24,254 nt of DNA from a virus, in the UHGV virus genome UHGV-1570564. One strand, written 5' to 3'. Below the pieces are notes generated by a model. That model ran no database searches. It was not told the DNA's origin and saw only the letters and a list, made by a program, of their open reading frames with translations. The translations under genes and the position numbers were made by a program. Below, in pieces: positions 1 to 24,254 of this stretch (position 1 is its first letter; each line of letters opens with the position of its first letter).

Positions 1-536
1 GTATCAACACGGTTCAGCAATACCCGATACTTTTTCCAGGCTTCCAGCAACGAGGTTTCTTCCTCCGTTGCAATTTCCAGATCTGCAGCATCCTGAAGCG
101 GCGCAATATGCTCACTGGCTACCTGCATCAGGTTGTTTTTTGTTTCTTCCGCCTCCCGGATCCGGAACAGTTTTTCTGCTTCCGTATCCTTCACCCAGGC
201 TGTGCCGTTCCACTTCTGAAACTCCCCTTCCGGCGATAACCAGGTAACATTTTCCGGTAACGGACCGAGTTCAGAAATAAATAACTCGTCCCCTGACGCT
301 ACGTCATAAACCGTTTTACCCCGATGGTCTTCAACGAGATGCCACGATGCCTCATCACTGTTGAAAACAGCCACAAAGCCAGCAGGAATATCTGGTGGTG
401 CAATATCGGTACTGTTTGCTGGCAGACCTGTATGAGGCGGAATATATGCGTAACCTTCACCAATAAATTCATTAGTTCCGGCCAGCAGATTATAAATTTT
501 TATGGTCCGTGCTTGTTCACTCATTCTGAATGCCAT
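1..536 (-). CDS. tfa: Tail fibre assembly protein (Tfa / gpG-like), 5' portion only; 3' end lies beyond the window start
   Basis: Minus-strand ORF with ATG at 536..534, open to position 1. Translation begins [54 protein letters not shown], which I recognise as the conserved N-terminus of enterobacterial prophage Tfa proteins. Start overlaps the tail fibre stop as TAATG. Confidence 0.8.
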
Positions 537-3433
537 TATGCAAGCCTCACAATATAATTAAATGCGATGTTTTTAACGGTGTTTTCCGCGTTACCAGCAG
601 CGTTAACGGTGATGGTGTGTCCATGTGAACCAATCGCAACGGAGTGCGTATGCGCACCAATACCTACAGTATGTGCATGTGCGCCAGAACTTGCTGCAGT
701 ACCAGACAGCGAGTGGGTATGAGCACCTGCTGACTGTGTCTGAATACGTTGATAATACGATCTATAGGAAGAAGTCTCCGGGCTTACTTGATACTGTGAA
801 TTCTGGACATAAGTGAACCCACCGCCATCATAAAATGCTAACGCAGAACCGCCGCCTCCTGGCCAACGAATACCATTACCATGAGTATGAACACCGGCAG
901 ACCCCGTAGAGCCACTCAGCCTGTGCGTATGCGCCCCGGTGTTATTCGTGGATTTAGTACCGTAATCAAACGACGATGTGGTTTTCGTACCCAAATCCGT
1001 ACTGGATGCGCTGGCACTGTGGGTGTGCGATTTAATGCCATCCTGTTCCTGAGACAATACGGCCCGACCACTGGCGGGTTTGCCCTTGATTGTCCAGCCG
1101 CGCATATCTGGAATAACACCAGAAGGATAGGCAATAGCCAGTTTCGGATATGCTGCCTTATCAAACGTCTGCCCCTGCATGATTGCATAACCTGCAGGTG
1201 GCGTATCTGATGGCCACGGCAGCGGAACACCTGGCGGAAACGCTTCAATATTTGCCGAGCCGTCAAATTTTACGCCGTTAATTGTCCTTGCCGTTTTCAG
1301 CTTTGTTGCTGTAGCAGCATTGCCGGATAGTTCGCCTGAAAGACCACCGCTGAATGTCTGTTTCGCCATCCATGTCTGAGCTTCGTCGATAATTGGCACA
1401 CGTCTTGTCGTAATCGTGCGGCTTCCCGGATTTCCTGAAATGCGAACCATAAAAAAGCGGTAATTCGCTTTACTTACAGTGCTGCGCCATACATGCATTG
1501 AGCGCCCCGTACCGGAATCATCACTCGGACCAACTGCGATGTTTATCAGGTTGCCATCAATGACGCCCCAGTCCATACCGTCGGGAATATTGGTCATATT
1601 ATCCAGCCGAACGGTTATCAGACTGCCCGGCACAAAATCGTAGGTCTGCCAGTCCAGGCTGGTGAGTTTTGCTACTGCGCCACCGATACCCAGATTCAGG
1701 GGAAGTGAATAAGATGTGTAAACTTCCCGCCATTCGCTCCATGAGCTGCCGGTAAAAACGCGCTCAAACGTGCGGCCTTTAAGGGTTGTACCTGTTCCGG
1801 CAGTTGTATAACGCTGCCATACATTAACACCATCAAACCGCCTCAACACTTCCAGAATGCCGAGTACAGTCACGCCGTTTCCGTCCAGTACTGGACCGTT
1901 GGTCGCTTTACCTGTAACGCTGTAAATACCTGGTGAGGTTACATCATTCAAATCACCTTCGTAATAACGACTCTCTGACTGATGACCGACTCTTAACCAC
2001 GGTTCCCACTGCGGATTTGATGCATCCCAGCTTGCCGCAAGACAGCGGACATACATATTTCCACGGCGAGTGGTATAACGTTGCGTTCTTCCATAATTTC
2101 CGCCTTCGAGGATCTCAAGCATCCCCTGAGCAAAGCCGCCTTCCTCTGGATAATTGCGTTCATATGAAGCTATAGCTGAGCTACTGTTACGCCATAAACC
2201 AAGATGCTCGGCGGCTCCAAGCGTATTCAGGTCTATAGTCGTACTCAAAGGGCGGGTAGCAGATTGAGTGTGACGCCATACGCCCCACGGACCATCAGTG
2301 CCATTCCACTTATTGGCGAGTTTACGCATGTATACATTGCCGTCTCTCGTGGTAAAGCGTTGCGTACCTGCAAAATGGCCGGCAGCAAAAACCTCAAGCA
2401 CACCGACAGCATTATCTTCCGGGAAATTTTTCTCCAGTGTTGCGTTGGTGGATGTTGCTTTAGACCAGATACCTGAATAAGCCTTAACAGGACCAAACGT
2501 ATTCAGATCAGCATCAAGCGGCATTTCGCCATTGTTTTTCATAAACGTCAGGCTGGTAACGCCAACATTGTCCAGAAAAGCTGATTTATCCTGGATATCT
2601 GCACCGTTCTGATTTTTCGCCAGACGTGAATTTGCGTTGTCATTTGCTGCCTTGACCGCTTTTGGCGTTGCCGCCTGCGTTTCAGACGTACTGTTAGTGG
2701 CACTACTGAGCTGAACTATCCCTTTTTGTGCCGTGGTGGCATTCTGGGCGGTATATTTTCCGTCAGCCAGGTCATATGCAGCCTTAACAGCCTTAGGCGT
2801 CGCTGCGAGCTTTTCAGACGTGCTATTGGTGGCATTACTGAGTTGAACAATGCCTTTTGATGTTAAAGTTGCATCAGGATGATTACGTGATTGCTCATGT
2901 TTTACAATAGCTTGCTTAAGCCGCTTTGCTGAAACAGCCAGGGAATCATCTGTACCTGCATCAATTTCTTGTTCATTAGCAAATCTTGCTACTCCAACAA
3001 CAGTTTCGGTTGCGGGAGGGTTAATAAACTCAACATCACCAAATGTAATGTTTTTAGTATCAAGATTTTTAATTGCTATATCACTTGATATTAAAGCAAT
3101 TGTAGAAGATACTTTATTTATTATTACTTGTTCTTGCGAGTATACAGCAAACAATGTTCCTTTATTTGTATACAAACCTATTGTATGGACAACATACTCA
3201 TCTTTACTATCATCCTTCGCAGTTACATGAATGGTATCAGGAGAAACGACTTTGCCTCCTATTGTGGTAAGTCGCTTTATTTCATCTGTTATTTTTGTTT
3301 GTGTGGTTGATGTGGCATAATATCTACTACCTAAACCAACAGAAACGATCTCAACTTTATTTGTTCCAGTCTTGTTGGCATTAACCAGCGCCTTACGCCC
3401 GGCGTCAGTCATCGTAAATAATAATTTACTCAC
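536..3433 (-). CDS. Tail fibre protein (965 aa), P2 gpH-like N-terminal anchor fused to a lambdoid Stf-like shaft and tip
   Basis: N-terminus [19 protein letters not shown] and the [10 protein letters not shown] motif followed by duplicated KGIVQLS(N/S)[17 protein letters not shown] repeats resemble P2 gpH. C-terminus has seven HxH motifs and ends [18 protein letters not shown], typical of enterobacterial side tail fibres. Sits after baseplate genes and before tfa. Confidence 0.85.
539..1021 (-). repeat. Coding repeats for the His-x-His rich C-terminal tip of the tail fibre
   Basis: Seven HTH/HAH/HGH motifs in the last ~160 aa; the corresponding DNA shows recurring gtgcgtatgcgc / gtgcatgtgcgc / gtgggtgtgcga type segments. 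Confidence 0.5.
2645..2857 (-). repeat. Two direct copies of a ~27-aa tail fibre repeat ([24 protein letters not shown]), about 130 nt apart
   Basis: Repeat copies at aa 193-219 and 237-263 of the tail fibre; the DNA copies are visibly similar (ttcagacgt(g/a)ct(a/g)tt(g/a)gtggca(t/c)tactgag(t/c)tgaac). Confidence 0.7.
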
Positions 3434-3463
3434 GCTTAATTCCTTGGATTAACAAATCGCAAA

Positions 3464-4045
3464 TTAGCACTCACCAATTAATCGTACATAAGACACAGGC
3501 TGGAAAGCACCGACAATACCAACACCACCTGAAACATTGGTTGCTTGCGAAAATGTAAATAGTGTTCTTGCCGACTTTGCACTCTTGATACTTCTTAACG
3601 TATCCTCCAACATCTCTTTCGAAGGAACAGCACCATCAAAAGAGTTAATCGAAGCAACAATTGAGGCTGTATATGGTTCGCCAGGTGGTGATGTTTCAAA
3701 CCATTCTGTTATGTTTACCTCTCCACCCAAGCTATTTACTACATCTTCAACCGCTGCCCTTGTACCCTTTATTCGCTTTGTTCGTATTATTGATTTAAAA
3801 ACAGAACGCTTTAACAATACAGGCCAACTATCCCTCCATGTATCAGCATTCCATTGCCAAGCTAAATGATCGAGAACAACTGAGTCCAGGTTATCAACAA
3901 CGCTATATATTTCTGTCTTATATATTAAATTGTTAATTGCTTGTAGTTCATCATCAATAGCTTTCGACATAGCTATCACGTTGGGATCGCTAGCTAAGTT
4001 AGGAGGTAAAACATCCAACAAGCTAACATTAAAGATATCAGCCAT
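3464..4045 (-). CDS. Tail/baseplate protein, P2 gpI-like (193 aa)
   Basis: Size and position between the J-like gene and the tail fibre gene, start overlapping the J-like gene end; assignment is mainly by synteny. Confidence 0.55.
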   Translation of the reverse strand: MADIFNVSLLDVLPPNLASDPNVIAMSKAIDDELQAINNLIYKTEIYSVVDNLDSVVLDHLAWQWNADTWRDSWPVLLKRSVFKSIIRTKRIKGTRAAVEDVVNSLGGEVNITEWFETSPPGEPYTASIVASINSFDGAVPSKEMLEDTLRSIKSAKSARTLFTFSQATNVSGGVGIVGAFQPVSYVRLIGEC

Positions 4046-5162
4046 CCTCTAACCCCGCATACTGGCAATTTATATTTCTCTCTCTGGCGACCTGTGTCTC
4101 TCCAATCACAGTAAAAACAGGACTTGATATTTCTAATCTTTTAGCCCCAGCATTTTTTAAACGTTGAATAATTTCATCTGGATTTATATCTCTTCCCATA
4201 ACCGAACGTTGCCATTGTTTATACTCATCAATAGCTTTCTCAACCTCACTTTGAATTAAAGTTGTTCTGTTTTTGTCCGATGAGTTAATCCAGTATTTAA
4301 TTATTATATCGTATTCAATGCTCTCTGGTTTCTTAACAAGAACTTTATCTGTGAATGGTCGAATATTAGTTGCAGAGAGAACGCTATTTATCTGCTCTAA
4401 TAGTTCATTAGAAGGTATATCTCCGTTCTCTAACAAAGAACGGATTTCTACAATTCCGGGCGATGGTGTATATACATTCACATCTTTTATATTCTGATTG
4501 GCTGTTCTTGTCCAATATTTATAAGAATCCTCCGGCCCTGCTGTAGACAGTTTTTCCGGCGACAGTTTTATTCTTTCAGCATAATTATCATCTGACTCCG
4601 TATCAGCACCAGAATTAGATGTTGTTACATTCCTTACGCTGGAAACATACGGCAACGGAGTCACCAACTCATTTATTTGCCCTGGTAAAAAGCCATTCCC
4701 AGATAAACCAGGTATAACAGCATATCCTGAGACTGTACCAACTGTTTTCCCAGCAGGTATTTCCAACAAAATATCTGTTTGGAAAATAACACCATTTCCA
4801 GTTGAAACTTGAGTGCCAGCAGGTATTGTATATATCCCCGATAATTTTGTTGACAGATTAAACTCAAATGTAGTCAAGGCAGATTGAGCTTCCAGCCTAG
4901 GCGTATCCGTCAGATAGCCTATATGGTCGAGATATTCACCTTCACCATATGTAAGAAGGTTTTGTTTTGCAGAAAAATCGATAGCTTTTCTTTGCTGTAT
5001 AATAATCTCACACAATGATAAGATGAATAATCTACGTGGATCAGCAGGTGCTAATGTTTCACCTGTTATACTCTCAAAAGCCCTGATTGAACGAGTTGTT
5101 ATATCAGTCGGGTTAGAATCTGCGAAAGTAATATCTGGCAAACCACCACGCGGCAACGTCAT
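4038..5162 (-). CDS. Baseplate J-like protein (374 aa)
   Basis: Size and position immediately downstream of the W-like gene with ATGA-type overlap; conserved W-J-I-fibre order of P2/Mu-type baseplates. Confidence 0.7.
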   Translation of the reverse strand: MTLPRGGLPDITFADSNPTDITTRSIRAFESITGETLAPADPRRLFILSLCEIIIQQRKAIDFSAKQNLLTYGEGEYLDHIGYLTDTPRLEAQSALTTFEFNLSTKLSGIYTIPAGTQVSTGNGVIFQTDILLEIPAGKTVGTVSGYAVIPGLSGNGFLPGQINELVTPLPYVSSVRNVTTSNSGADTESDDNYAERIKLSPEKLSTAGPEDSYKYWTRTANQNIKDVNVYTPSPGIVEIRSLLENGDIPSNELLEQINSVLSATNIRPFTDKVLVKKPESIEYDIIIKYWINSSDKNRTTLIQSEVEKAIDEYKQWQRSVMGRDINPDEIIQRLKNAGAKRLEISSPVFTVIGETQVARERNINCQYAGLEDG

Positions 5163-5479
5163 TCTCTAACTCCTATCACAAGTTTTGGCCTAATAAAACC
5201 ATCAGAAACGTCCGTTCTTTCAAAAGTAACAGAATGGATAATCGCTCTAGGCTCAAACTCACTAATTTTTTGAATTATTTCTCGTGTTGCTGTAGCAATA
5301 AAAATTGGACTAGGGCTATCAACAAGACTTGAATTAATTCCTAATTTTCTGGCATATGGTACAGTGCCAATTTGAGTATTAATAATAGTAGAGACATTTT
5401 GCAAAACTTCTTCTACAACTGTTTTGGGCGACCAATCAATCGAGTAAGAAGGTGATGATATGGTAAACGTATTATTCAT
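5159..5479 (-). CDS. Baseplate assembly protein W (gp25-like, 106 aa)
   Basis: Small protein with a TQIGTVPYARKLG segment and an EPRAIIHSV motif consistent with the gp25/GPW family; located between spike and J genes. Confidence 0.65.
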   Translation of the reverse strand: MNNTFTISSPSYSIDWSPKTVVEEVLQNVSTIINTQIGTVPYARKLGINSSLVDSPSPIFIATATREIIQKISEFEPRAIIHSVTFERTDVSDGFIRPKLVIGVRE

Positions 5480-5943
5480 AATAATTTACCTAACGCACTT
5501 CTAGTTTTTGACTCTATATTGCCAGCAATATCAACTAATGCTTCTTTCAGAGAGGTCTGTCCGACTTCCTGTAATTTAATGCCGACGATAATCACTCGTG
5601 GATTCCCAGTTGGACCGAAATAAGTCCATGATTCCTCTATATCTGTAATTATAAAATTACCAAAATACTGAATACCAATTACAACAGGATTTACTTCCTG
5701 AATTGATTGCATTGTCCTAAGTAATGAAAGCGCAGCCAATGGAATAATGCCAAGTGTTGTATCCAACCGCATATTAAAACTAACTTCATCCAGATCTGGA
5801 CCTATATCCTCCAGAACAGGTTTAAGCCCAATAACATCATGGCGCGCTACACGACGCTTTGACGTCCTTTTAAAATTGTTGAACGTATTCACCACTATTG
5901 ATGAGGCAACAAAAGGCATTGTACCAAGCATACCCACAATCAT
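5476..5943 (-). CDS. Hypothetical protein (155 aa) inserted between spike V and W in the baseplate operon
   Basis: ORF translationally coupled on both sides (overlaps at 5940-5943 and 5476-5479); hydrophobic N-terminus MIVGMLGTMPFVASSIVV; no motif I can assign. Confidence 0.5.
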   Translation of the reverse strand: MIVGMLGTMPFVASSIVVNTFNNFKRTSKRRVARHDVIGLKPVLEDIGPDLDEVSFNMRLDTTLGIIPLAALSLLRTMQSIQEVNPVVIGIQYFGNFIITDIEESWTYFGPTGNPRVIIVGIKLQEVGQTSLKEALVDIAGNIESKTRSALGKLL

Positions 5944-6560
5944 GCCTGAGCCTCCGTTGTCGGAGCGTATTCCCCCTGAGCTGTGTGATGGTGGCCTTTA
6001 GATTTAATCCCATCAACATCTATATCACCACCAACAACCTTAACATTCCCAGAAATTGTAGCTGCAACACCTCCAGCAGAAGATCCTTTCATTCCACCTT
6101 TGAAGGTTAGTAATCCTTCAACTGTAGCATTTCCGGTAATGATGGTTTCTGGAGCATCAATAGTTACGGTTCCTGTAGCCTTAATGGTTACATCTCCGAC
6201 AGCATCAACAAGGAGTAAATTAGATTCTCTGTCTATCTCAATACGAGTTCCGTTATTAAATCTAATGACGCGTTTATTAACAGTATTAGATGGCGGCTTC
6301 TGTGTTTCATCATAAAAACTACCAAGAATAAAACCTTGTTGCGGCCCCGCGGGATGAAAGATACACAAAACTTGCTCACCAATATCTGGCATCCAGTAAT
6401 CAGCATTCTTATCTGTATTTTTCACAATAACTGATAACTTTGCCGAAGTGACGTTATCCTGATCATCGAAAGTAACTCTTGCTGTAACATCACCATCATC
6501 AATATCAGAAACAACGCCAACTCTTATAGTCTGACGTAATAATGTTTCTAAATCATTCAT
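5940..6560 (-). CDS. Baseplate spike / assembly protein V (gp5-like, 206 aa)
   Basis: N-terminal OB-fold-like region followed by a Gly/Val/Thr-rich beta-repeat stretch (VGDVTIKATGTVTIDAPETIITGNATVEG...ISGNVKVVGGDIDVDG) typical of phage central spikes; position after the gpD-like hub. Confidence 0.7.
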   Translation of the reverse strand: MNDLETLLRQTIRVGVVSDIDDGDVTARVTFDDQDNVTSAKLSVIVKNTDKNADYWMPDIGEQVLCIFHPAGPQQGFILGSFYDETQKPPSNTVNKRVIRFNNGTRIEIDRESNLLLVDAVGDVTIKATGTVTIDAPETIITGNATVEGLLTFKGGMKGSSAGGVAATISGNVKVVGGDIDVDGIKSKGHHHTAQGEYAPTTEAQA

Positions 6561-6562
6561 AA

Positions 6563-7564
6563 TTAATACCCATTAATTACTCTTCGGACATCAATCGAGG
6601 TGGTATAACCACTAGTCCCAATTGAATGCACAGCTTTCGATATAAGATATTTTCCAGAAAATGAACCGAATCCCTCCAGATTTATAGTTACACCAGCTAC
6701 CAATCTGGTGTCTCCAACCAATACTAAAGATCCGGTATTTTGATATCTATTTTTAAGCCGCAAAGCAGCCTTTGCCTTACGTTTTGCTTCATCTAAATTA
6801 GCTACCAGTTTTCTTATCTTAAGATTCGACCCTTCTTCTACGGATGGATCTACCCAAGTATACGAAAGCGACTTTCTTTTTTTAGGTACGCGATATTTGC
6901 ACGTGCAACTTTTATACAAATCTGTAGATTGTGTGCTAAAGCTATATCTGATTATCTCATCAATACCTAACGTAAGCGTAGCGATAGGATCTTTTTGCTC
7001 AAACATCTCTTGAGCAAATATTATTAATTGGCTATCAGTGACCTTTAACGACAACCCTTCATCCTGGCAAAGTCGATGGAGAAATTTTAAATCGCTTTCC
7101 TCCATTTGATCTTCACGCGCATAATATGGATTACTATCACCATCAATAAGAAACAACAGTTCAAGGTTAGCTAATTTAGCTATAGAAGTTGCTATATCTT
7201 TAAGAGTTGTTTTTTCCCATGCATTACTTTTTAAATCACGTCTAATGCCTGATGAAACAGGAACAGAAACAGCAGTTACCTCAACCACAGAAGGTGGTCC
7301 AGAGCAAGTTATGCCATCTACCTGGAATTTCCCGCACTCAAGGACGATTTGATTTATAGGCTTAAAGCTCAAATCAATAAAATCACCCTTTTTAGGTGTC
7401 CAGTCTCCAGACCATTTCCCATCATCATTTTTTAATATAATAGAAATATCATCGACCTGACCATCTTCATTATCTGTATAAGACATTGACAAAACATCAG
7501 GTGACATATGAGCGGTAATATTTACATTCTGATATATAACATCAAAAAGCGTTTTACGTAACAC
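6563..7564 (-). CDS. gpD-like tail protein / baseplate hub (333 aa)
   Basis: Size and position after tape measure and the LysM gpX-like gene, as in P2 (T-X/U-D) and Mu (gp44). Confidence 0.65.
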   Translation of the reverse strand: MLRKTLFDVIYQNVNITAHMSPDVLSMSYTDNEDGQVDDISIILKNDDGKWSGDWTPKKGDFIDLSFKPINQIVLECGKFQVDGITCSGPPSVVEVTAVSVPVSSGIRRDLKSNAWEKTTLKDIATSIAKLANLELLFLIDGDSNPYYAREDQMEESDLKFLHRLCQDEGLSLKVTDSQLIIFAQEMFEQKDPIATLTLGIDEIIRYSFSTQSTDLYKSCTCKYRVPKKRKSLSYTWVDPSVEEGSNLKIRKLVANLDEAKRKAKAALRLKNRYQNTGSLVLVGDTRLVAGVTINLEGFGSFSGKYLISKAVHSIGTSGYTTSIDVRRVINGY

Positions 7565-7772
7565 TATTGCGTCTCCACGGAGGAAAATTGTTTACTGATA
7601 TTGGCATAACCGGAGCATCAGGAACTTTAAGAATAATTCCCGCAGAAAAAAGCACCGTAAAGCGGTGCTCAGTATTAGCATCAATAAGAAGATAAGACAG
7701 GTACTCATTACCATACAACTTTAAAGCGATACTATCCCATGAGTCCCCTTGAACCGTTCTATAATCATCCAA
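7554..7772 (-). CDS. LysM-domain tail protein, P2 gpX-like (72 aa)
   Basis: YRTVQGDSWDSIALKLYGNEY...ILKVPD matches the LysM pattern; small size and position directly after the tape measure gene. Confidence 0.65.
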   Translation of the reverse strand: MDDYRTVQGDSWDSIALKLYGNEYLSYLLIDANTEHRFTVLFSAGIILKVPDAPVMPISVNNFPPWRRNSVT

Positions 7773-10557
7773 AACTTAATCTCCGTTGTTGGAACATATG
7801 AGCACTCAATTTCTTCTCAAAATCAGAATATCCCGCATCTAATGCTCTTTTAGCTGCCGCCTCAGTTTCCTTTGGTGAACCAGCCGGAAGATTGATTACA
7901 GGTGAATAGGTTATTCCACCAGTCACAGCGTTAACGTTCTGGCGAGGTCCAGAAGTCCCGGCGGCAGATATCCCGTGAGGTGATAAATTTGATTGCCCGA
8001 ACTTGCTTGCTATTGCATTCTGTAAGCTGTTATTCCTGCTAACACCTGATGCCAGAGTAGTCATTATTGCACCACCTGACTTTGTTAGCTGTGAGAATGG
8101 ACCTTTTTTCGCGTCAGAGAACGGTAAATACTCACGTACAGAAGAAAAAACGCCTTTCACTTCATTAATTAAAGCATTTGCTTTTGATTTTATCCCAGTG
8201 ATTAACGTCTCAATTATTTTTGCGCCTGACTCACTCCAGTTTATTCCAGATAAATAAGTCGTTACAGATTGGAATGCTCTTATAAAGAGTCCAACTGGTG
8301 AAAAACGCATAAAAACAGATACCAGTGTATCTATGATTTTCTTTCCTGTTTCGCTCCAGTTAATGCCAGAAAGGTAATTTGTTGTAATTTTAAATGCTTT
8401 AATTAAGAACGGAAGCGGAGACATCCATTTAAAAGCACTAATTAATGTACTGTAAATTCTTACACCTGCCGAACTCCAGTTTATGTTGGAAAGATAATCC
8501 CATGCTTTACCAAACATAGATATAATCCATCCATTGAGGTCAAAGTTTAAGATAAAGTTTTTTATAGCCTCAAATGATTTAACTGTATATTCCTTAACAG
8601 AAGGCCAAACTCTGACAGCATAATCTCTGATCTTATCCCAATTCTGATAGAGCAATATTCCTGCGGCAACCAGCGCAGATATAGCCATCTGAATCCACCC
8701 GAAGGGTGTTAGCTTTGTCGCTACAGATAAAGCCAGCATAGCTACCCTACACGCTATAACCACACTTTTCATGGTTAGAAACGCACCTGCCGCCATCACT
8801 ATCTGAGACACAAAATTGGGGTTGTTAGCTACAAATTCACTAATTTTTGTAATCAGCGGAACCAAAACACTAAGCGCGGCATTCAAAGCAGGTTGCAAGG
8901 CCTGACCAAAACTTAATGATGCATTGCTAGCCTGAATACGTAATTGTTTCAATCGCTCCGCATTATCTTTCGTTATGTTGGCAAAATCGCGGTCAATAAC
9001 AGCACTTCCAGCTCCAAGAGATGTTGCTTTGATTCTCTGGTATTCCTTCCAGTTTTGAATCATCGGACGAACAAAGTTCTGAACCTGCATATCGCCAAAT
9101 AGTTCACCAAGTAACTTCTGATCTCCGTTCTTAGTCATTTTCATGACAGAATGCATTGCAGCTTCGAATGGATTCTTCCCTTTTTTCTGCGCTGTTGTAA
9201 CAATTTTATATAAATCTACACCGAAATTTTTCTTTGCTTTTTTTAGTGTTTCAGGGGAAAGTATTTTTGCCAAAAAGTTGTTCATATTATTAGCAGCCTC
9301 ATCCGAAGTTGCAGCCCCCTTGCGAGCTATCTGCAAAGCTGCACCCATCGTCGCGGCTGCTTCTTTACCTCCCATTTTTAATGCCTGGAACTGAGCACCA
9401 AGCACAGGAAGATTTTTGGCCATATCTTTAAATTCAAAGTTCCCCTCTTTCCCTGCCTGAACCAGAATCCCCATTGCAGACTTCATTTGAGATGGATCAA
9501 TCTTCAATGAGTCACTTAATGTAAATGATGCTTTCGAGACATCGAGGATATCAGAGCCAGTAGCTGTAGCTGTTCGCCCAATAGTTAGTAGATTCGCCTG
9601 AGCCTCTTTATAATCCTGCCCAGCAGCGACGAGAAAACCCTGAGCGGCCTGAATATCAGATGCAAACTGGTTGGTAGCCGTTCCGGTAACAAGCATCGCC
9701 TGCCCCATCGCCTGAACTTCTTCCGGCTTCATATCTGCCGTAAGACCAATCATTTTGTTTTCACGATTGAAATTTGCTGCATTGTTAGCAGCAGCAAATG
9801 CACCAGCCGCTACAGCACCAGTTTGTAATCCTGACCTTACAAGTTGACTCTTTGCCTCACCAAGATGCTCTCGCTTCAATTCACGCTGCCTTTCCAACGC
9901 GCGGTTTAACTCCTCCTGAGCACGTTTTACTGCAAGAACATTTTTCCGTGCTTCAGCCAACGCATTTTTATAGCTGTTAATTTTATCAATACGTTGTTTT
10001 TCTAATGCCCGGTTAAGTTCCTCCTGCTGTTTTTTCACTTGCTGAACATTTGCTCTGGCTAAAGCCAAAGCCGTTCTGTAGCGGTTAACCTGCTCAACGC
10101 TACGGGCCTGAGCCTCACGATTACGATCAATGCTGGCTTTAAGCTCTTTCTCTCTTGAGGCCAAAGCTCTGGCAGATGTATCAGCTCCCTGATAGGCAGA
10201 CTTTAAAGCGGCCAGTTCTTCACGCTGAGAACGTAGTGATGCTCGTAAATTCGATGAATGTGTTTTTGCCTTCTCAAAGTCACGAAGCATCGCTCTGGTT
10301 GGATTGGCCGTGTTTTTTATTTGCTTCTGTAACTCTTCAACGCGAGCGGCAGCTTTATGATATTCGAGGGCAGTCTGTCCAACCTTTACTTTTACAGATT
10401 GTAGCTTTTGAATTTCCCCATGTTCTTTCGTTAATCCAGCAAGCTCGGCATTTAATTTAGCAACAGCCTGATTAGCTGTAGTAAAACTTTTGGGGAGAGA
10501 GGCGGCAACTTTGCCGCCAATTTCAAAAGCCAGCTTAAAGTTCTTATTGCTGGCCAT
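7765..10557 (-). CDS. Tail tape measure protein (930 aa)
   Basis: Largest tail ORF, downstream of the chaperone pair; N-terminal coiled-coil repeats, central Ala/Gly-rich region, hydrophobic segments and C-terminal tandem repeats. Confidence 0.85.
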   Translation of the reverse strand: MASNKNFKLAFEIGGKVAASLPKSFTTANQAVAKLNAELAGLTKEHGEIQKLQSVKVKVGQTALEYHKAAARVEELQKQIKNTANPTRAMLRDFEKAKTHSSNLRASLRSQREELAALKSAYQGADTSARALASREKELKASIDRNREAQARSVEQVNRYRTALALARANVQQVKKQQEELNRALEKQRIDKINSYKNALAEARKNVLAVKRAQEELNRALERQRELKREHLGEAKSQLVRSGLQTGAVAAGAFAAANNAANFNRENKMIGLTADMKPEEVQAMGQAMLVTGTATNQFASDIQAAQGFLVAAGQDYKEAQANLLTIGRTATATGSDILDVSKASFTLSDSLKIDPSQMKSAMGILVQAGKEGNFEFKDMAKNLPVLGAQFQALKMGGKEAAATMGAALQIARKGAATSDEAANNMNNFLAKILSPETLKKAKKNFGVDLYKIVTTAQKKGKNPFEAAMHSVMKMTKNGDQKLLGELFGDMQVQNFVRPMIQNWKEYQRIKATSLGAGSAVIDRDFANITKDNAERLKQLRIQASNASLSFGQALQPALNAALSVLVPLITKISEFVANNPNFVSQIVMAAGAFLTMKSVVIACRVAMLALSVATKLTPFGWIQMAISALVAAGILLYQNWDKIRDYAVRVWPSVKEYTVKSFEAIKNFILNFDLNGWIISMFGKAWDYLSNINWSSAGVRIYSTLISAFKWMSPLPFLIKAFKITTNYLSGINWSETGKKIIDTLVSVFMRFSPVGLFIRAFQSVTTYLSGINWSESGAKIIETLITGIKSKANALINEVKGVFSSVREYLPFSDAKKGPFSQLTKSGGAIMTTLASGVSRNNSLQNAIASKFGQSNLSPHGISAAGTSGPRQNVNAVTGGITYSPVINLPAGSPKETEAAAKRALDAGYSDFEKKLSAHMFQQRRLSFG
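8158..8508 (-). repeat. Three tandem degenerate ~40-aa repeats in the tape measure C-terminal region (YLSGINWSE(T/S)G.KII(D/E)TL...)
   Basis: Protein-level repeats at about aa 684-800, mirrored in the DNA (cactccagtttattccagataaataagtcgttac / gctccagttaatgccagaaaggtaatttgttgt / gaactccagtttatgttggaaagataatccc). Confidence 0.55.
9880..10077 (-). repeat. Duplicated coiled-coil unit in the tape measure N-terminal region (..KKQQEELNRALEKQR.. / ..KRAQEELNRALERQR..)
   Basis: Two similar ~30-aa units at aa 161-226; the DNA shows the matching duplicated stretch (gttaa(c/g)t(c/t)cctcctg...). Confidence 0.5.
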
Positions 10558-18602: not shown

Positions 18603-18838
18603 AAATCTCTTATCACCACTCGTTTAATTCGTGGGCCTCGGCGTACACCTGCTGATAATCTTTCTACTTCATTACGCCAGTAATCCATCTCTTTTCTGAC
18701 TTCTGATAAATCCGCACGAGTTAACTGCCGCGTACCAAATTTATATGACTGACCGCCAATAGCAATAGCGCGATATGCTTCCCGCCAGACAGATAACATC
18801 TCTCTGGCTTCAGTCAGAGAAAATGCTTCATTGTTCAT
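18599..18838 (-). CDS. gpW-like head-tail joining protein (79 aa)
   Basis: Small ORF between terminase and portal; pattern ..L.EAREML......GGQSY.FGTR.LTRADL.EV..E...W..EVERL....RRGP parallels lambda gpW including the conserved RRGP near the C-terminus. Confidence 0.65.
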   Translation of the reverse strand: MNNEAFSLTEAREMLSVWREAYRAIAIGGQSYKFGTRQLTRADLSEVRKEMDYWRNEVERLSAGVRRGPRIKRVVIRDL

Positions 18839-18849
18839 TTATATTTCCT

Positions 18850-20706
18850 CTATATGGTTACGCCTTTACTTATAACTCTACGGCGTCTTCTACGTATACC
18901 TGACGAGTTCTGCACATACACATTACCTCGCATTTCCTGTTCGGCAAGCCAGTTAAAATTAGGGTTCAGAATTTCCATCGCGGCAGTTGCATAGTTACGG
19001 CAATCAAGAGGCTCGTTACGCTCGTAGACTTTCACCCACTTTTCTTTTGTCTGCCCATTTTTATATTCAAATATTTTTTTCTCTGATAATAATCCTTTAA
19101 AGTATTCGGTATCATATCCTCTGTCAGAATCTAATGGGAAATGCATATAACCAGGACCAGGATCATGTAGTTTAATTCTTGCCATGATGGTCCCTTTACC
19201 ATCATCAACCCCCAAATTAAACAACATAGCACCCACACGGTTATTATTACTTGGCTTTCCTATAAATGGTAAACCTACCCCACCACGCCCCCTGATAGAG
19301 TATATTCGCCTTGATTCTCTCGGCTTAGTAAAGCGATATACCTCTGTCGTAAAATGCCCACCAGAGTCAATACAAACGGAAGAAATCTGTAATTTTCGAC
19401 CGTCACGGAATGACCAGCTACGGAGTAAGTATTCATCAAGTTGTTTCCAGACAACATCTTGTGCGGGATCACCTGGGAATATTTTATATTCTATCCCCCA
19501 TGACTCCTTACCTTTTCCCCAACCGACCAATTCACAAACTAAATACGTGTCCTGTACGTCAACACCAGCACTTAACAATAAAACATCATCTGGTAAAAAC
19601 TCTTCAAACCTTATTCTGCGTTGCAACAAGTATTCAGGATCGATATCGTCTTTAGCATCCTCTTTCCATGGCTCACCCAGCTTAAGGTTAATAAACTCCA
19701 TTAATCCATTTTTATCGCGGTTTCTGGTTGCTTCCGTAAATTCTTCAACCAGCTCTGACAATGCAACCCACGGGGAGTAAAGACTGTTAATATGAAAACC
19801 AACAATACCTTTAACTCCAGTATGTTCAGCTATCCATACCCCCTTCGCCAACCAATCAACGTCTGGTTTACCAGATCCGCGCATAATCCCGCCGCACTCA
19901 CAGCACTCATATCTGGCCGTTTCCGGTAACGCCTCACCTGAATCGCTCTTATCCCATCTGACTTGCGACCATTTCATCACCTGCATGGTGCCACAACATG
20001 GGCAAGGAACATGGTAGTAACGCTGATCGGAGAGCTTAAACCACTTGTGGATTTTGCTTGTTTCCTCCAAAACAGGAGTAGAAACAAAAACTTTCTTACG
20101 ATTATGAAAGTTGGTAGTACGCTGAATACCTAGTTTTAGTGGGTCGCCCTCCTGCGTCACACCGTAACGATCAATCTCATCAGCTAACAGTATTCGAATT
20201 GGCCTGGATGCAAGACCTGCTGGGGAATTAGCACCAACAAGTGCTATATATCCACCAGCGTAATGCTTCATACGTATAGTCGTGCTGGACTTTTTGGCTG
20301 CACCGCGCCCCTCTTTCCCTTCATGCAGCTTGTGTTTCAAACCAGGGGAATATTTGAACGTCGGATCAATACGCTCTTTTGAAAAAGCCTCAGCCGCCTC
20401 TACCGTTGGATAAATCATCAACTGAGGAGATGGCTCCTGATCTGCAAAGTAACCCATAACATTTAGCTGTAATTCGGATTTACCAATTTGCGAGCTACAT
20501 TGCATCACTACTGTTTCTGTATCAGCGTCACCAATAACATCCATTGGTTCACGCAAATATGGCACTCGGCTTGTACGCCACGGCCCTGGCTCTGGAGACG
20601 TTCCCGGCGCTACATGACGATACTTATCAGCCCATTCGGAAACAGTTAGCCGTGATTTAGGGCGAAGCGCACGGAAAAAAGCGGTGCTCCATACTGTTTC
20701 GCCCAT
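18850..20706 (-). CDS. Terminase large subunit, lambda GpA type (618 aa)
   Basis: Size and N-terminus (..RLTVSEWADKYR..) consistent with GpA-family terminases; followed by gpW-like and lambda-family portal genes. Confidence 0.85.
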   Translation of the reverse strand: MGETVWSTAFFRALRPKSRLTVSEWADKYRHVAPGTSPEPGPWRTSRVPYLREPMDVIGDADTETVVMQCSSQIGKSELQLNVMGYFADQEPSPQLMIYPTVEAAEAFSKERIDPTFKYSPGLKHKLHEGKEGRGAAKKSSTTIRMKHYAGGYIALVGANSPAGLASRPIRILLADEIDRYGVTQEGDPLKLGIQRTTNFHNRKKVFVSTPVLEETSKIHKWFKLSDQRYYHVPCPCCGTMQVMKWSQVRWDKSDSGEALPETARYECCECGGIMRGSGKPDVDWLAKGVWIAEHTGVKGIVGFHINSLYSPWVALSELVEEFTEATRNRDKNGLMEFINLKLGEPWKEDAKDDIDPEYLLQRRIRFEEFLPDDVLLLSAGVDVQDTYLVCELVGWGKGKESWGIEYKIFPGDPAQDVVWKQLDEYLLRSWSFRDGRKLQISSVCIDSGGHFTTEVYRFTKPRESRRIYSIRGRGGVGLPFIGKPSNNNRVGAMLFNLGVDDGKGTIMARIKLHDPGPGYMHFPLDSDRGYDTEYFKGLLSEKKIFEYKNGQTKEKWVKVYERNEPLDCRNYATAAMEILNPNFNWLAEQEMRGNVYVQNSSGIRRRRRRVISKGVTI

Positions 20707-20711
20707 GAGGT

Positions 20712-21263
20712 TTATTCTTCCTGCTTAATAAATCGGGATTCCTGGAGCGCCTGAAGCGCAAAATTAATCTCGTCTTCAATAATGCGCTCGATCTCCCTGG
20801 CTGTTTTGCCTTCACAACGGGGAGCTGCTCTTGGAGCAATACTAAATAAGCGGCTACGCAATTCATTAGCTGCCAGAAATGCATCATCCCTGACCGCATC
20901 TTTAGCGATGAGAGAGCCTTCCTTTTCTTCAAATTCAAGGCGTTTCAGCTTTGCCTGATAAATTTTTTCTGCGGTCTTAGCCTTGTTGAATTGCACCGCA
21001 ACACCGGAAGTACCACCAGCTAATCCGGCATCATCAGCGGGTAACTCTGGTTGTTCCGAAGATATCCCATGCCCTCTTTTTCCATTTTCAGCAGATACCT
21101 CACGACCAACCTGTCGGCTCGCTTCATAAGCCGCACTGGCTTTATCAAAATCCAGCTTGCCGCTTTTCAGCACTGGAATGCGACCGGAACGACAGAGCTT
21201 CGTAACCATTGCCGGAGAAATACCTTTCCGGCGGGCAAACTCTGACTTACTGACGATGGCCAT
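20712..21263 (-). CDS. Terminase small subunit, Nu1-like with N-terminal helix-turn-helix
   Basis: MAIVSKSEFARRKGISPAMVTKLCRSGRIPVLKSGK parallels the lambda Nu1 N-terminus. Preferred start is ATG 21263..21261, overlapping the ParB-like stop as TAATG; the ORF track start at 21272 is a TTG. Confidence 0.7.
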   Translation of the reverse strand: MAIVSKSEFARRKGISPAMVTKLCRSGRIPVLKSGKLDFDKASAAYEASRQVGREVSAENGKRGHGISSEQPELPADDAGLAGGTSGVAVQFNKAKTAEKIYQAKLKRLEFEEKEGSLIAKDAVRDDAFLAANELRSRLFSIAPRAAPRCEGKTAREIERIIEDEINFALQALQESRFIKQEE

Positions 21264-21853
21264 TACTTGCAACCATTAGCAAGATACTGAACAAATCCCT
21301 CATGCGTTTCATGCGCGTCGTGGTACTGACGATAAACATCCAGCAACAATGCAATTTCCATATCCGTCGCGGGAATACGTTCTTTATCAATAGCCAGGTA
21401 CTTAATTTGAACAACAGGGGAAGAATTATCGTCTTCTTCCTGCGGCTGTTCATCGCTTAACATTTCGTCAAGCTCTGCATCATTAAACCCAAGCAGATCA
21501 ATATCAAAATCATCATCCATTAACTCTTTGACTTCTTCGGCCAGAAGCTGCATATCCCAGCCAGCATTTAAGGCCAGCTTGTTATCTGCAATCCTGTAAG
21601 CCTTCTTCTGTTTTTCAGAAAGGTTACTCAACCGAATCGCCGGAACTTTATCCATTTCCAGAATTTCGGCTGCTGCAAGCCGCCCATGCCCCGCAATCAG
21701 TTCATTCTTTTCATCGATCAGCACAGGATTAGTGAAACCGAACTCACGGATACTGTTCACCAACTGTTCAACTTGCTCATCTGAATGAGTCCGTGAATTT
21801 TTGGCATATCTGAGCAACTTACCGACTGGTAAATATTCGATTTTTAGAGCCAT
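21263..21853 (-). CDS. ParB-like nuclease-domain (ParB/Srx fold) protein, standalone, 196 aa
   Basis: NSRTHSDEQVEQLVNSIREFGFTNPVLIDEKNELIAGHGRLAAAEILEMDKVPA matches the ParB N-terminal domain signature (..GHGRL.AA..); acidic C-terminal half; stop overlaps the small terminase start. Confidence 0.75.
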   Translation of the reverse strand: MALKIEYLPVGKLLRYAKNSRTHSDEQVEQLVNSIREFGFTNPVLIDEKNELIAGHGRLAAAEILEMDKVPAIRLSNLSEKQKKAYRIADNKLALNAGWDMQLLAEEVKELMDDDFDIDLLGFNDAELDEMLSDEQPQEEDDNSSPVVQIKYLAIDKERIPATDMEIALLLDVYRQYHDAHETHEGFVQYLANGCK

Positions 21854-22409
21854 TTTTTAACCGCCATAACACAACAGGTTAAAGAAAACTGTTTAACTTA
21901 TTGATACTAAAAGAGAAAAATGACGATCTTTTTACTCATAAAAAATCACACAAACCAGCATAATTATCTGATTTTATTAAGTTTTTATAAGTAAAAAGGA
22001 TCTTGCGATGGTGTTTTGGTTAAAAGATTGGATGTATTTGCATGATTTATAACGATTTTTATCAGAACAACATCACATTGGTTAAAGATCTGCGCGTATC
22101 TTGATGATCTAAAAGAAAATTTTCCACTTTCTTCTTACCAGCACAAATACAGAAAAAATCACGTTTTCCCGATATTTTTCAATGAGATGAGTAAATTTCT
22201 TTTACCGCAACTTTTAACCTAACTTTTTTCACGTTTAGCTAGCCGAATATCGGGGTTCGAATGACCCGCATCCAACGCTTTTGGCCAGAAGGACCCAATT
22301 CTGCCGGACGATGAAACGATGCTCGTGCTCCCCCACAGACAGCCAGCGAGCGACGCTACAGAACACAGTGAATACACCCTGCATAACAACACCATCAACC
22401 ACACGATGA
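21854..22409 (-). promoter_or_regulatory. AT-rich non-coding region upstream of the ParB-terminase-head-tail operon; candidate late promoter and/or packaging (cos) region
   Basis: About 550 bp with no convincing ORF. Repeated motifs: GGTTAAAGA-like at 21877-21885, 22018-22027, 22080-22088; AAAAAATCAC at 21940-21949 and 22153-22162; four GATC sites between 21925 and 22109. No specific -35/-10 pair could be assigned with confidence. Confidence 0.35.
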
Positions 22410-23129
22410 TTAACGAGAGAACGTCTTAGAAAGGATGTCATCAATAGCCTTTGTGACTTCATCAGCAAACGCATCCTCACCAGCACGCAGCGCCACGCCA
22501 TGCCAATCAAGACGCTGCGAATAGTTAGGTTGCTGGATGAACGTAAGGATCAACGTAGGACGCCGCCCAACGCGCTGCCAGACGCCTGGTTGAAGCGGGT
22601 TACTTGTACCAGGTCGAACAACAAAAAACTCCGTAGGCTTGCCCTGACGGCGATTTTGATGCGCATCTCGCTGAACTCTTAGGCCAGATAAGACCTGCTG
22701 TAATTGCCCCCGCGAAATATTCCCGTATTTGTCCAGCTTTGCGCCGGGACCAGGAGCAAGCTGCCAGCCGTTAGGCAAATATCCACCAGCCCTTAGCGCC
22801 CCTTCTGAGCGTTTGTACTGTCGTTGGCCGCCTTCGATTTGCGGAGTCAACGTTACAGGGGCTGGCGTTCCACCCCATTCACGAGCATACACAATGGCTG
22901 TAGGATCACTCTTCTTTGCGGCCAAAACGTAAGTAGAGTTCTGAATCCACGGCGTGGGCCTGTCAAATACCCGATTAATTTCATTCTTAATCGCAGCCTG
23001 AGAAGCCTTTGCCGTTCTGGTTGCCGCAAGCGCCATTGCGAACGGCAATTCGCGTTCTTCAAGGCGCTGGAGTTGTCGTTGAATATCCTGAGAAGAAAAA
23101 TCCATCTTTATCTCAATTCTGTCAGCCAC
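22410..23129 (-). CDS. Hypothetical protein (239 aa), Arg/Gln/Gly-rich, no cysteine; downstream partner of the methyltransferase-fold gene
   Basis: ORF with GTG start at 23129..23127 preceded by AGGAGG (23140..23135) at 5-nt spacing, 16 nt after the upstream gene's stop; no recognisable catalytic or structural motif. Confidence 0.5.
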   Translation of the reverse strand: MADRIEIKMDFSSQDIQRQLQRLEERELPFAMALAATRTAKASQAAIKNEINRVFDRPTPWIQNSTYVLAAKKSDPTAIVYAREWGGTPAPVTLTPQIEGGQRQYKRSEGALRAGGYLPNGWQLAPGPGAKLDKYGNISRGQLQQVLSGLRVQRDAHQNRRQGKPTEFFVVRPGTSNPLQPGVWQRVGRRPTLILTFIQQPNYSQRLDWHGVALRAGEDAFADEVTKAIDDILSKTFSR

Positions 23130-23145
23130 CAGCGCCTCCTACACA

Positions 23146-24219
23146 CTACTTAATCAACGGCCGGAAAGCCGCCAGCACATCATCAGATCGTCCGATTGTT
23201 GAACCACCAGGCAACGGCAACTCAAACTCAAAACGAACAGCTTTCTCCAGACTCGCCCAACTAAGGGAATCATCGTTAATGACGTGCAAATACCAGCTCT
23301 TACAGTTGAATATTGACCGCTTAATCCTGAAACCATGTACACGACACAACTGCTTCACTTCCTCATCAGAGTGAAACTTCTGGTAAAACCAGTGCCCCTT
23401 CCGGTACAACGCGGTAAAACCGTCATGATCAATAAAATAAAGCCGGCTTTTGGAACTCGCCGCTTGTGTTTGCTTCAGGACTGTTTCCAGTTCTCCACGG
23501 CTACGGCCAGAAAAGAATATTGACCCACCAGCTTTACACAGGCCTTTCAGAACCGTCAGAACGGACCATTCAGCCTCGACACTATCGACCGAGTTCAAAA
23601 CGCTATCGCAAATCACGTAGTCGTAACGCCCTCGCGTTTTTAAGTCGTCCACCAGCGTATCAATCATCCGGTTTGTTGCGGCCCTATCCAGAGTGTTTCC
23701 AGCGCCCTTACGGCGGAAAAGCTCGAGATCATGCAGGTTATATCCCTTTGCCCTGAGCATTCGCGCGTAGTCTCCCTGCCCCGAACCAAAATCAATTCCT
23801 CTTGGCGTCTTGGCAATGATCGGGAGGATCAACGACTCATACAGATTTGATTTCAGGCTGCCACCATTACGCAACCGCATAAGCTGCGCATACGTCTGGA
23901 TGTATGTTGTTTTCTCCAGATGAGAATACTCAAATACACCATAAGTTTTATTCAGATAACTTTGGTATTTTTCCTTCTCAACATCAGGGATCACAAACAC
24001 CGTTAGCGGTGTGCGCGTCATTTTCGCTGCTAATGCATACTGAGCACAGTGAATAACCTCACCAGACTGAGTAGCAACACAACCACCCCACGGACCATAC
24101 TTGATAACCAGTTCCGCTATGTTCTTTCGAACATATGCCATTTTCGCGCGCATATTGCCTGAGATCTGGCTTGCCGATACCTGAACAAAACCATGCTTAT
24201 GAAGCAATACATTCAACAT
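23146..24219 (-). CDS. Class I SAM-dependent methyltransferase-fold protein with ~135-aa N-terminal extension (357 aa); substrate unknown
   Basis: Motif I-like GIDFGSGQGDYARML, acidic residue in ..GYNLHDLELF.., and YDYVICDSVL / GGSIFFSG segments typical of Rossmann-fold methyltransferases. No (D/N/S)PP(Y/F/W) or PCQ/ENV motifs of canonical DNA methyltransferases. Confidence 0.6.
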   Translation of the reverse strand: MLNVLLHKHGFVQVSASQISGNMRAKMAYVRKNIAELVIKYGPWGGCVATQSGEVIHCAQYALAAKMTRTPLTVFVIPDVEKEKYQSYLNKTYGVFEYSHLEKTTYIQTYAQLMRLRNGGSLKSNLYESLILPIIAKTPRGIDFGSGQGDYARMLRAKGYNLHDLELFRRKGAGNTLDRAATNRMIDTLVDDLKTRGRYDYVICDSVLNSVDSVEAEWSVLTVLKGLCKAGGSIFFSGRSRGELETVLKQTQAASSKSRLYFIDHDGFTALYRKGHWFYQKFHSDEEVKQLCRVHGFRIKRSIFNCKSWYLHVINDDSLSWASLEKAVRFEFELPLPGGSTIGRSDDVLAAFRPLIK

Positions 24220-24254
24220 CAGCGTGGCTGATCACCTTTCGGGCTTTTCAAGCC

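Follow-up and report, generated by a model that had tools for sequence, protein, structure and literature searches.

A ParB/Srx-family gene between a putative lambda-type cos site and the terminase genes of an Escherichia coli phage-plasmid

The gene that directly precedes the small terminase gene in the analysed window, a stretch of viral DNA of 24,254 nucleotides, encodes an intact 196-residue protein of the ParB/Srx family, and a putative lambda-type cos site is located upstream of it. In this phage, which lives as a plasmid and would have a cos of the lambda type, the gene would be the first to follow the left cohesive end, and the late operon would be read from the ParB-like gene directly into the genes of the small and large terminases. 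The gene is of an intact, common and already annotated kind and is ordinary as a finding, with a modest question on its role attached. The phage-plasmid lineage for which the analysis provides a corrected map is widespread in clinical E. coli, being present in 72 of 5426 complete genomes. The map shows the predicted position of cos, identifies which genes come first and last on the virion chromosome, and corrects the domain structure of the ParB-like protein.

Phage-plasmid carrying the ParB-like gene

The minus strand of the 24-kb window contains a complete myovirus morphogenesis block, all genes of which are on the same strand. They encode the tail fibre, baseplate, tape measure, tube, sheath, and head proteins, a ClpP-type protease, a portal protein of the lambda family, and the large terminase of the GpA type. 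The 1.7 kb around the ParB-like gene are 99–100% identical to plasmids of ~47 kb, which were found in 72 of the 5426 complete E. coli genomes, and 74 of the 75 matching places in E. coli are located on plasmids. Equally close matches occur in sequenced virions, namely those of Yersinia phages vB_YpM_39/41/44 and Escherichia phage vB_EcoM-613R2. On the full plasmid pSCU-204-5, the same structural block is accompanied by genes for RepA and a small ParA, the latter followed by an 81-aa gene, by lysis genes, and by a toxin-antitoxin pair. The element is therefore a phage-plasmid of ~47 kb, of the myovirus type, from E. coli and its relatives. The phage-plasmids of the pSLy3/SSU5 group are a different, larger element.

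Plasmid pSCU-204-5 contains three ParB_N genes, a gene for an MT-A70 methyltransferase, and a ParB-methyltransferase fusion, all within 6 kb. The fusion and a second standalone ParB paralogue are located just upstream of the gene for the 196-residue protein, on the other side of cos. ParA is encoded ~16 kb away from the 196-residue ParB-like protein in the full plasmid, and the 81-aa gene downstream of ParA is its own. The genes and the gene junction of the window that are discussed here are:

18850..20706, minus strand: large terminase of the lambda GpA type (GpA_ATPase 7e-76, GpA_nuclease 1e-84)
20712..21263, minus strand: small terminase (TerS), 183 aa, with an N-terminal helix-turn-helix-like segment (PHROG 57, 1.4e-41)
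21261..21265, minus strand: TAATG, in which the stop codon of the ParB-like gene overlaps the TerS start codon by one base (read from the sequence)
21263..21853, minus strand: coding sequence of the ParB/Srx-family protein, 196 aa, with an ATG start, stop codon included (identical to RefSeq WP_001185429.1)
22410..23129, minus strand: gene for a 239-aa PHROG 1924 protein, the last gene before cos, syntenic in all close relatives
23146..24254, minus strand: ParB_N + Methyltransf_23 fusion, 457 aa, C-terminal part (PHROG 5475), cut by the end of the window

Identity and integrity of the ParB-like gene

The RefSeq name of WP_001185429.1 is 'ParB/Srx family N-terminal domain-containing protein', and several records name the protein 'chromosome (plasmid) partitioning protein'. 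The gene had been assigned to the ParB/Srx family in a sequence-only reading, in which the motif LIAGHGRLAAA (residues 51–61 of the 196-residue protein) was recognized, and profile searches bear out this identity. Residues 15–86 match Pfam PF02195 ParB_N with 33.7 bits, above the gathering cut-off of 26.3 (E = 3.8e-8), and residues 1–195 match positions 5–210 of the 217 positions of the profile of PHROG 620, 'ParB-like partition protein' (E = 4.6e-75). ParB_N is the sole Pfam match of the protein, which contains no methyltransferase domain. The protein has the alpha+beta fold of the ParB/Srx family with its conserved arginine loop (GxxR).

The possibility that the gene is a pseudogene, which was considered in the sequence-only reading, is ruled out. 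The open reading frame is intact, the identical protein is encoded on at least 1000 contigs, and dN/dS is ~0.05 in a comparison with an 86% identical relative, for which dS is near saturation. Split copies of the ParB-like gene were found in two of 49 viral loci, one with a +1 change in a homopolymer and one with a 10-nt duplication containing an N; both look like sequencing or assembly artefacts.

Junction with the terminase genes

The stop codon of the ParB-like gene and the start codon of the Nu1-like small terminase gene have one base in common, as had been proposed. The minus strand at the junction reads ...GGT TGC AAG TAA TGG CCA TC, with TAA at 21265..21263 and ATG at 21263..21261. No strong Shine-Dalgarno sequence is present at the junction before the ATG of TerS. 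The distance between the two genes stays tight in relatives, ranging from -4 to +12 nt. The gene of the GpA-type large terminase begins 5 nt after the small terminase gene on the same strand, and the proposed membership of the ParB-like gene in a packaging operon stands. A promoter consensus scan identified no site in the spacer between cos and the ParB-like gene, and two weak sites within the ParB-like open reading frame, fewer than expected from shuffled sequences.

Putative cos site upstream of the ParB-like gene

It had been predicted that cos lies either inside the coding sequence of the ParB-like protein or upstream of it. The analysis points to the upstream position, with the putative cosN 402 bp upstream of the ATG. 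The features of the region are:

22290..22296, minus strand: GGGTCCT, the same heptamer as lambda 48473-48479, at -30..-24 from the nick (alignment with lambda)
22255..22266, minus strand: putative cosN cohesive end 5'-GGTCATTCGAAC-3', 12 nt, with the top-strand nick between 22267 and 22266
21855..22219, no strand assigned: cosB-like AT-rich region with all 5 GGTTAAA of the window and 6 of its 10 GGTWAAAR, in both orientations
21928-21998, no strand assigned: conserved 31-nt imperfect inverted repeat within the cosB-like region

The placement of cosN is based on the heptamer at the lambda spacing, on the ends of phage records and contigs, and on the most conserved intergenic block. The junction was aligned with the ends of lambda itself (NC_001416). 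The heptamer GGGTCCT at lambda 48473-48479, which we take to be lambda cosQ, is positioned at -30..-24 from the top-strand nick in lambda, the window, YpM_41, XM1, and X29. The five sequences also have in common the nick context CG/GG, with the nick at the slash, and a related sequence after the 12-nt end. It has been described that cosQ is a highly conserved 7-bp site and that CG is a conserved flank of the nicks (Feiss et al., PMC4669245).

The three Yersinia phage records all start at window position 22266 on the minus strand and read GGTCATTCGAACCCCG... from there. The linear record of Vibrio phage vB_VpaM_XM1, the work of a different sequencing group, starts at the homologous base (GGTGCTCGCGACCCCG...) and repeats the same 12 nt at its terminus (...GAGCGGGTGCTCGCGAC+A). 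The presence of the 12 nt at both ends of the XM1 record is the pattern expected from a filled-in cohesive end. The first base of the metagenomic viral contig L086 is the homologous one as well. In all, the homologous position coincides with the beginning or end of phage records or contigs from three independent sets; the record of Vibrio phage X29 is cut 11 nt further along.

The spacer upstream of the ParB-like gene is 556 bp long and contains the putative cosN. In relatives with 79–86% identical proteins the spacer is strongly diverged, except for a block from ~22300 to 22205, the core of which, GCGGGTCATTCGAACCC, is invariant in those relatives. Relatives have repeats at the same place, with GGTTAACAAA present ten times in L082 and GTTAACA five to six times in the Vibrio phages. 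The layout of the repeats between cosN and the start of the ParB-like gene resembles that of lambda cosB, and the region may be called cosB-like by this analogy. The order of the elements would be cosQ (22296..22290), cosN (22266..22255), the repeats, and the genes of the ParB-like protein, TerS, and the large terminase (TerL), with the ParB-like gene starting 414 bp and TerS 1004 bp from the end. Thus, the comparisons of sequences and record ends argue for a lambda-type cos ~400 bp upstream of the ParB-like gene, with a predicted overhang length of 12 nt. A description of cos for this lineage was not found in the literature, and the paper on XM1 does not discuss the ends. No RNA family reaches the gathering threshold in the spacer between cos and the ParB-like gene. 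The search for RNA families in the whole window returned a sole match, IS009 at 1-193.

Distribution and conservation of the ParB module

A tblastn search identified the module in 513 phage records. An exhaustive HMMER search, which covered 1.84 billion cluster representatives, identified 35,735 matches at E ≤ 1e-3, 17,950 at E ≤ 1e-10, and 1,701 at E ≤ 1e-30. Most of the best 150 of the 35,735 matches, which are representatives of clusters at 50% identity, are standalone proteins of 170–270 aa. Therefore, the unfused state is the norm among close relatives, and the sequence-only view that such domains are usually fused to a methyltransferase, which made the gene of the window appear unusual, does not hold.

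The annotated genomes of Vibrio phages XM1 and X29 have the gene order ParB-like, TerS, GpA-type TerL, gpW-like, portal, and ClpP, and a looser version of it is found in Rhodobacter phage RcOceanus. All relatives of the window TerS down to 39% identity have a gene with the ParB module directly upstream; in L086 the slot is occupied by a ParB_N+N6_N4_Mtase fusion. In at least 18 of the 25 more distant viral loci sampled, a large terminase is encoded within ~4.5 kb downstream. The downstream terminase is of the GpA type in ten of the 25, and terminases of other families were found in eight of the ten others tested. The profile of the distant TerS was too divergent for the locus scan. The ParB module is followed by terminases of four Pfam families (GpA, TerL_ATPase/TerL_nuclease, Terminase_3, and Terminase_6), and therefore its synteny with terminase genes is independent of the terminase class. 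In locus L038, the ParB protein is coupled to a C5 methyltransferase.

The sequence identities of residues 1–135 of the ParB-like protein, TerS, and TerL to their counterparts are 62, 43, and 65% in XM1, 68, 40, and 62% in L086, and 56, 26, and 38% in L027. By this measure, the N-terminal module is about as conserved as the large terminase, and its conservation far exceeds that of the small terminase.

Predicted structure of the ParB-like protein

The structure of the protein has been predicted with AlphaFold2 from an alignment of 18 sequences, with a mean pLDDT of 86.9. The model calculated from the single sequence had a pLDDT of 44.6 and was unusable. The diversity of the alignment was drawn from the search of cluster representatives; two of three large homologue searches contributed little, as their results were filled with E. 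coli sequences of 99% identity. The protein is divided into three parts:

21449..21853, minus strand: residues 1–135, ParB/Srx N-terminal module with a helical extension (model and alignment)
21413..21448, minus strand: residues 136–147, acidic linker of low model confidence (pLDDT below 50 for residues 138–147)
21266..21412, minus strand: residues 148–196, small C-terminal domain (beta-hairpin 151–162, helices 164–181 and 187–192)

The acidic stretch of residues 138–147, which had been read as an acidic tail, is instead a linker before a conserved C-terminal mini-domain with a pLDDT of ~87–95 (residues 151–192). The mini-domain is kept in ~13 cluster representatives and in the standalone paralogue from the same plasmid, which is 207 aa long. 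Other lineages have different small tails with other beta/alpha arrangements, or zinc ribbons, in its place. A Pfam search with the C-terminal 53–105 aa returned no match at E up to 10. The beta-alpha-alpha pattern of the mini-domain was considered as a ribbon-helix-helix, which is a guess only, since two fold searches gave no assignable match.

Structure searches with the model return Noc, CTP-bound ParB, KorB, PadC, the N-terminal part of ParB from pNOB8 (pNOB8 ParB-N), sulfiredoxin, and the serine kinases SerK and SbnI. In the alignment to ParB and Noc, the motif GERRxRA corresponds to G55-H56-G57-R58-L-A-A and the 'EN' pair to D90-N91. Residues N19, R21, H23, G55, H56, G57, R58, D90, N91, and E107 are invariant in an alignment of 13 sequences; in the alignment of 18 sequences R21 and G55 are nearly invariant instead. 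Judged from these residues, a nucleotide-type pocket appears to be kept, although without the canonical CTP motif. One of the three arginines of GERRxRA is retained in the GHGRLAA of the ParB-like protein, and because the other two are missing, binding of CTP of the kind known from ParB is not assured.

Possible functions of the ParB-like protein

It is tentatively proposed that the ParB-like protein is a late-expressed nucleotide-binding factor that acts on replicated phage DNA during its maturation or packaging. The proposal is derived from the enzyme-like conservation of the N-terminal module, its interchangeability with methyltransferase fusions, and the tight coupling of the gene to TerS. 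The protein would be a methyltransferase-less member of the very large clade of phage proteins annotated with a 'ParB-like nuclease domain'. It would consist of a ParB/Srx module with nucleotide-pocket-like residues (N19/R21, GHGR, and D90-N91), the acidic linker, and the mini-domain. It may nick DNA weakly or serve as a DNA-binding module gated by NTP, at the same time and place as the DNA methyltransferases that are fused to the module in sister phages. ParB/Srx domains have been described variously as NTPases and as DNases (PMC5512222), and a prophage ParB-methyltransferase fusion encoded among terminase genes has non-specific nicking activity (PMC3592412). For proteins with the ParB fold, the nuclease activity that has been described is weak and lacks specificity. 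A functional study of the ParB-like protein, of its close homologues, or of the family beside terminase genes was not found in the literature. It may be that the gene lies beside the terminase genes simply because they are expressed together late, as is the case for many accessory genes.

The protein could also be an anti-restriction or anti-defence factor, which guards progeny or incoming phage DNA or attacks the DNA of the host or of rivals. It might do so alone or together with the nearby methyltransferases, and it might be carried in the virion. Such a function would be in agreement with the finding that sister phages have, at the corresponding position, the same module fused to N6_N4 DNA methyltransferases, with the coupling to a C5 methyltransferase in L038, and with the three ParB_N genes, MT-A70 methyltransferase, and ParB-methyltransferase fusion clustered on the plasmid. 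Furthermore, the PADLOC model MTase_II matches the N-terminal module at 2e-40, and Iyer et al. suggest conflict roles for phage ParB domains (PMC5512222). However, the 196-residue protein lacks a methyltransferase domain of its own, and it has no similarity to DdrB of phage P1, the prototype of injected ParB domains (best BLASTP E = 0.43 against the N-terminal ParB domain of DdrB). In addition, phages of unrelated hosts have a strongly conserved N-terminal module, and such conservation is unusual for a protein engaged in an arms race. Although less likely than the late factor proposed above, an anti-restriction role is a serious alternative.

The tight and conserved juxtaposition to TerS, the position of the ParB-like gene as the first after cos, and the conserved cluster of repeats between cosN and the gene would be expected of an obligatory co-nuclease or assembly factor of the terminase at cos. 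Such a factor, possibly binding the GGTTAA repeats, would do the work of the HNH endonuclease in HK97-like phages or of IHF at lambda cosB, and in other cos phages the corresponding place in the genome is taken by HNH nickases (PMC3592412). However, the same ParB module precedes enzymes of the Terminase_3, Terminase_6, and Terminase_1 types, and L086 keeps GTTAAC repeats even though a methyltransferase replaces the small C-terminal domain. The GpA-type terminase of lambda nicks both strands itself, and lambda has no ParB-like gene. Because other terminase families are associated with the module and lambda needs no such gene, an obligatory role of the ParB-like protein at cos, as co-nuclease or assembly factor, is distinctly unlikely. 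The module accompanies both cos-type and other terminase families, which speaks against a role confined to cos cleavage without pointing to an alternative one. The ParB-like protein is probably not the cos-recognition subunit, because TerS has its own helix-turn-helix and because the repeats persist in L086 in the absence of the small C-terminal domain. The small terminase and the GGTTAA repeats fit the role of cos recognition.

The protein might be a miniature clamp of the ParB type, in which the mini-domain mediates dimerization and the N-terminal modules engage each other in a nucleotide-dependent manner to close the dimer, and which loads at the GGTTAA repeats beside cosN and marks or organizes the DNA for the terminase. 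If this improbable arrangement were true, the packaging of virus DNA would include a centromere-like step, and the methyltransferase-fused relatives would use the same loading to methylate DNA during packaging. It is very improbable that the protein is a centromere-binding partition protein or a KorB/VirB-like regulator of the plasmid prophage, even though the element is a plasmid, several records name the protein as a partitioning protein, and its fold matches those of ParB, KorB, and Noc. The score of the protein against TIGR00180, the model of partition ParB, is 40.1 bits, below the cut-off of 58.45, and neither a helix-turn-helix nor a C-terminal dimerization domain of the ParB type is recognized in the 196-residue model. 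ParA is encoded ~16 kb away with a small partner gene of its own, whereas the ParB-like gene is positioned in the late structural operon. Moreover, the module also occurs in lytic-looking and in non-plasmid phages, always beside terminase genes.

The question of what the module does extends beyond this lineage. The module has at least 17,950 representatives (E ≤ 1e-10), is located before four terminase families, and is as conserved as the large terminase, and its role represents a small general gap in phage biology.

Comparison with known systems

The N-terminal ParB/Srx fold of the protein is shared with the CTP-dependent clamps ParB, Noc, and KorB. The arginine of box I, the second arginine of GERR, and the E-N pair of the clamps correspond to R21, R58, and D90-N91. 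In contrast to the clamps, the protein has no recognized ParB-type helix-turn-helix, it contains GHGRLAA in place of GERRxRA, and its gene is apart from that of ParA.

Fusions of ParB_N to N6_N4 methyltransferases, such as the ParB-methyltransferase of the prophage of B. cereus ATCC 10987, have an orthologous N-terminal module with up to 68% identity over residues 1–135. In L086, whose packaging module is orthologous to that of the window, the gene immediately before TerS is such a fusion. By contrast, the protein from the window has ~50 residues of an unrelated small domain in place of the methyltransferase.

The HNH endonucleases of the HK97 gp74 type are likewise encoded by small accessory genes with a nuclease-type annotation beside cos and the terminase genes; however, their fold is unrelated to that of the ParB-like protein. 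A requirement for cos cleavage is known of HNH proteins, such as HK97 gp74, but not of ParB-like proteins.

The putative cos of the window resembles that of lambda in the GGGTCCT at -30..-24, the CG/GG nick, the predicted 12-nt end, and the presence of repeats between cosN and the first gene. In both, the large terminase is of the GpA type and the small subunit carries a helix-turn-helix. Unlike in lambda, where Nu1 starts 191 bp from the end, the ParB-like gene is interposed in the window and TerS starts at 1004 bp. The repeat region of ~365 bp with at least six GGTWAAAR sites is also unlike that of lambda.

The closest known counterparts are proteins of PHROG 620, which include gp1 of RcOceanus and the products of the first genes of X29, phi 2, and vB_VpaM_XM1. 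These proteins of ~200 aa have the same full-length match to the profile, and their genes occupy the same place at the head of a module of TerS, GpA-type TerL, gpW, portal, and ClpP. The N-terminal modules of the XM1 and X29 proteins are 62% identical to that of the 196-residue protein. The C-terminal mini-domain varies among the PHROG 620 lineages, and a beta-hairpin followed by two helices is the form found in the protein of the window.

ParB genes flanking the predicted cos site

Ahead of a gene in which ParB_N and methyltransferase domains are fused, the complete plasmid encodes another standalone ParB-like protein, a paralogue of 207 residues. The 207-residue protein is 48% identical over its full length to the 196-residue ParB protein encoded upstream of TerS, including the C-terminal mini-domain formed by a β-hairpin and two helices. 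The stop codon of the paralogue shares one base with the following start codon, as in the 196-residue ParB gene. The presence of the fusion and of the second paralogue means that the phage-plasmid has three ParB_N genes, which flank the inferred cos site.

23146-24254, minus strand: ParB_N + Methyltransf_23 fusion, 457 aa, PHROG 5475, interrupted by the window end
35601-37597 of the full-plasmid locus L002: 207-aa paralogue and ParB_N + Methyltransf_23 fusion
22410-23129, minus strand: PHROG 1924 'minor tail protein', 239 aa

No other gene separates the PHROG 1924 gene from the predicted cos site, which makes it the last gene on the right-hand side of the virion DNA. Its synteny is kept in all close relatives, and weak homologues of its product occupy the matching place at two distant loci (L027 and L033).

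Two copies of the ParB gene in viral contigs are interrupted.

L025, 5001-5595: interrupted ParB copy
L024, 3461-4062: interrupted ParB copy

One copy is broken by an A8-to-A9 homopolymer change and the other by a 10-nt duplication containing N; both look like artefacts of sequencing or assembly rather than gene decay.

The cosB-like region contains an inverted repeat with GATC sites inside it.

21928-21998: imperfect inverted repeat, 31 nt, 77% complementary, 9-nt spacer

The arms of the repeat, GTAAAAAGATC and GATCCTTTTTAC, are kept in the 80% relatives, and the repeat could serve as a site for bending or for binding.

Tail-fibre region and TerL–portal gap

The GC content of the distal tail-fibre region (window 1-2800) is about 50%, whereas that of the adjoining baseplate and tail genes (2800-9200) is 35–42%, a difference suggestive of mosaicism through exchange of a host-range module. 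In Yersinia phage relatives, a Hin-type invertase is encoded near this region. An Rfam match is positioned at the extreme start of the window, downstream of the tail-fibre genes.

1-193, minus strand: RF02111 'IS009', 212.7 bits (gathering score 117)

The gap between TerL and portal holds a small gene, below the threshold of at least 90 aa used for listing open reading frames.

18603-18849: DUF6148 in RefSeq, 'head-tail adaptor' (gpW-like) in Vibrio phages

Predicted cos architecture in Vibrio phages

As judged from sequence, the same predicted cos architecture is also present in a group of Vibrio phages for which the name 'Weiviridae' has been proposed; the description of that group makes no mention of it. 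A cosN-like end and GTTAAC-type repeats are common to Vibrio phages XM1 and X29 and the metagenome contig L086. The heptamer GGGTCCT is located at -30 in XM1 and X29; the sequence of L086 begins at the nick and covers only what lies downstream of that position. The XM1 record has a terminal redundancy of 12 nt together with one extra A.
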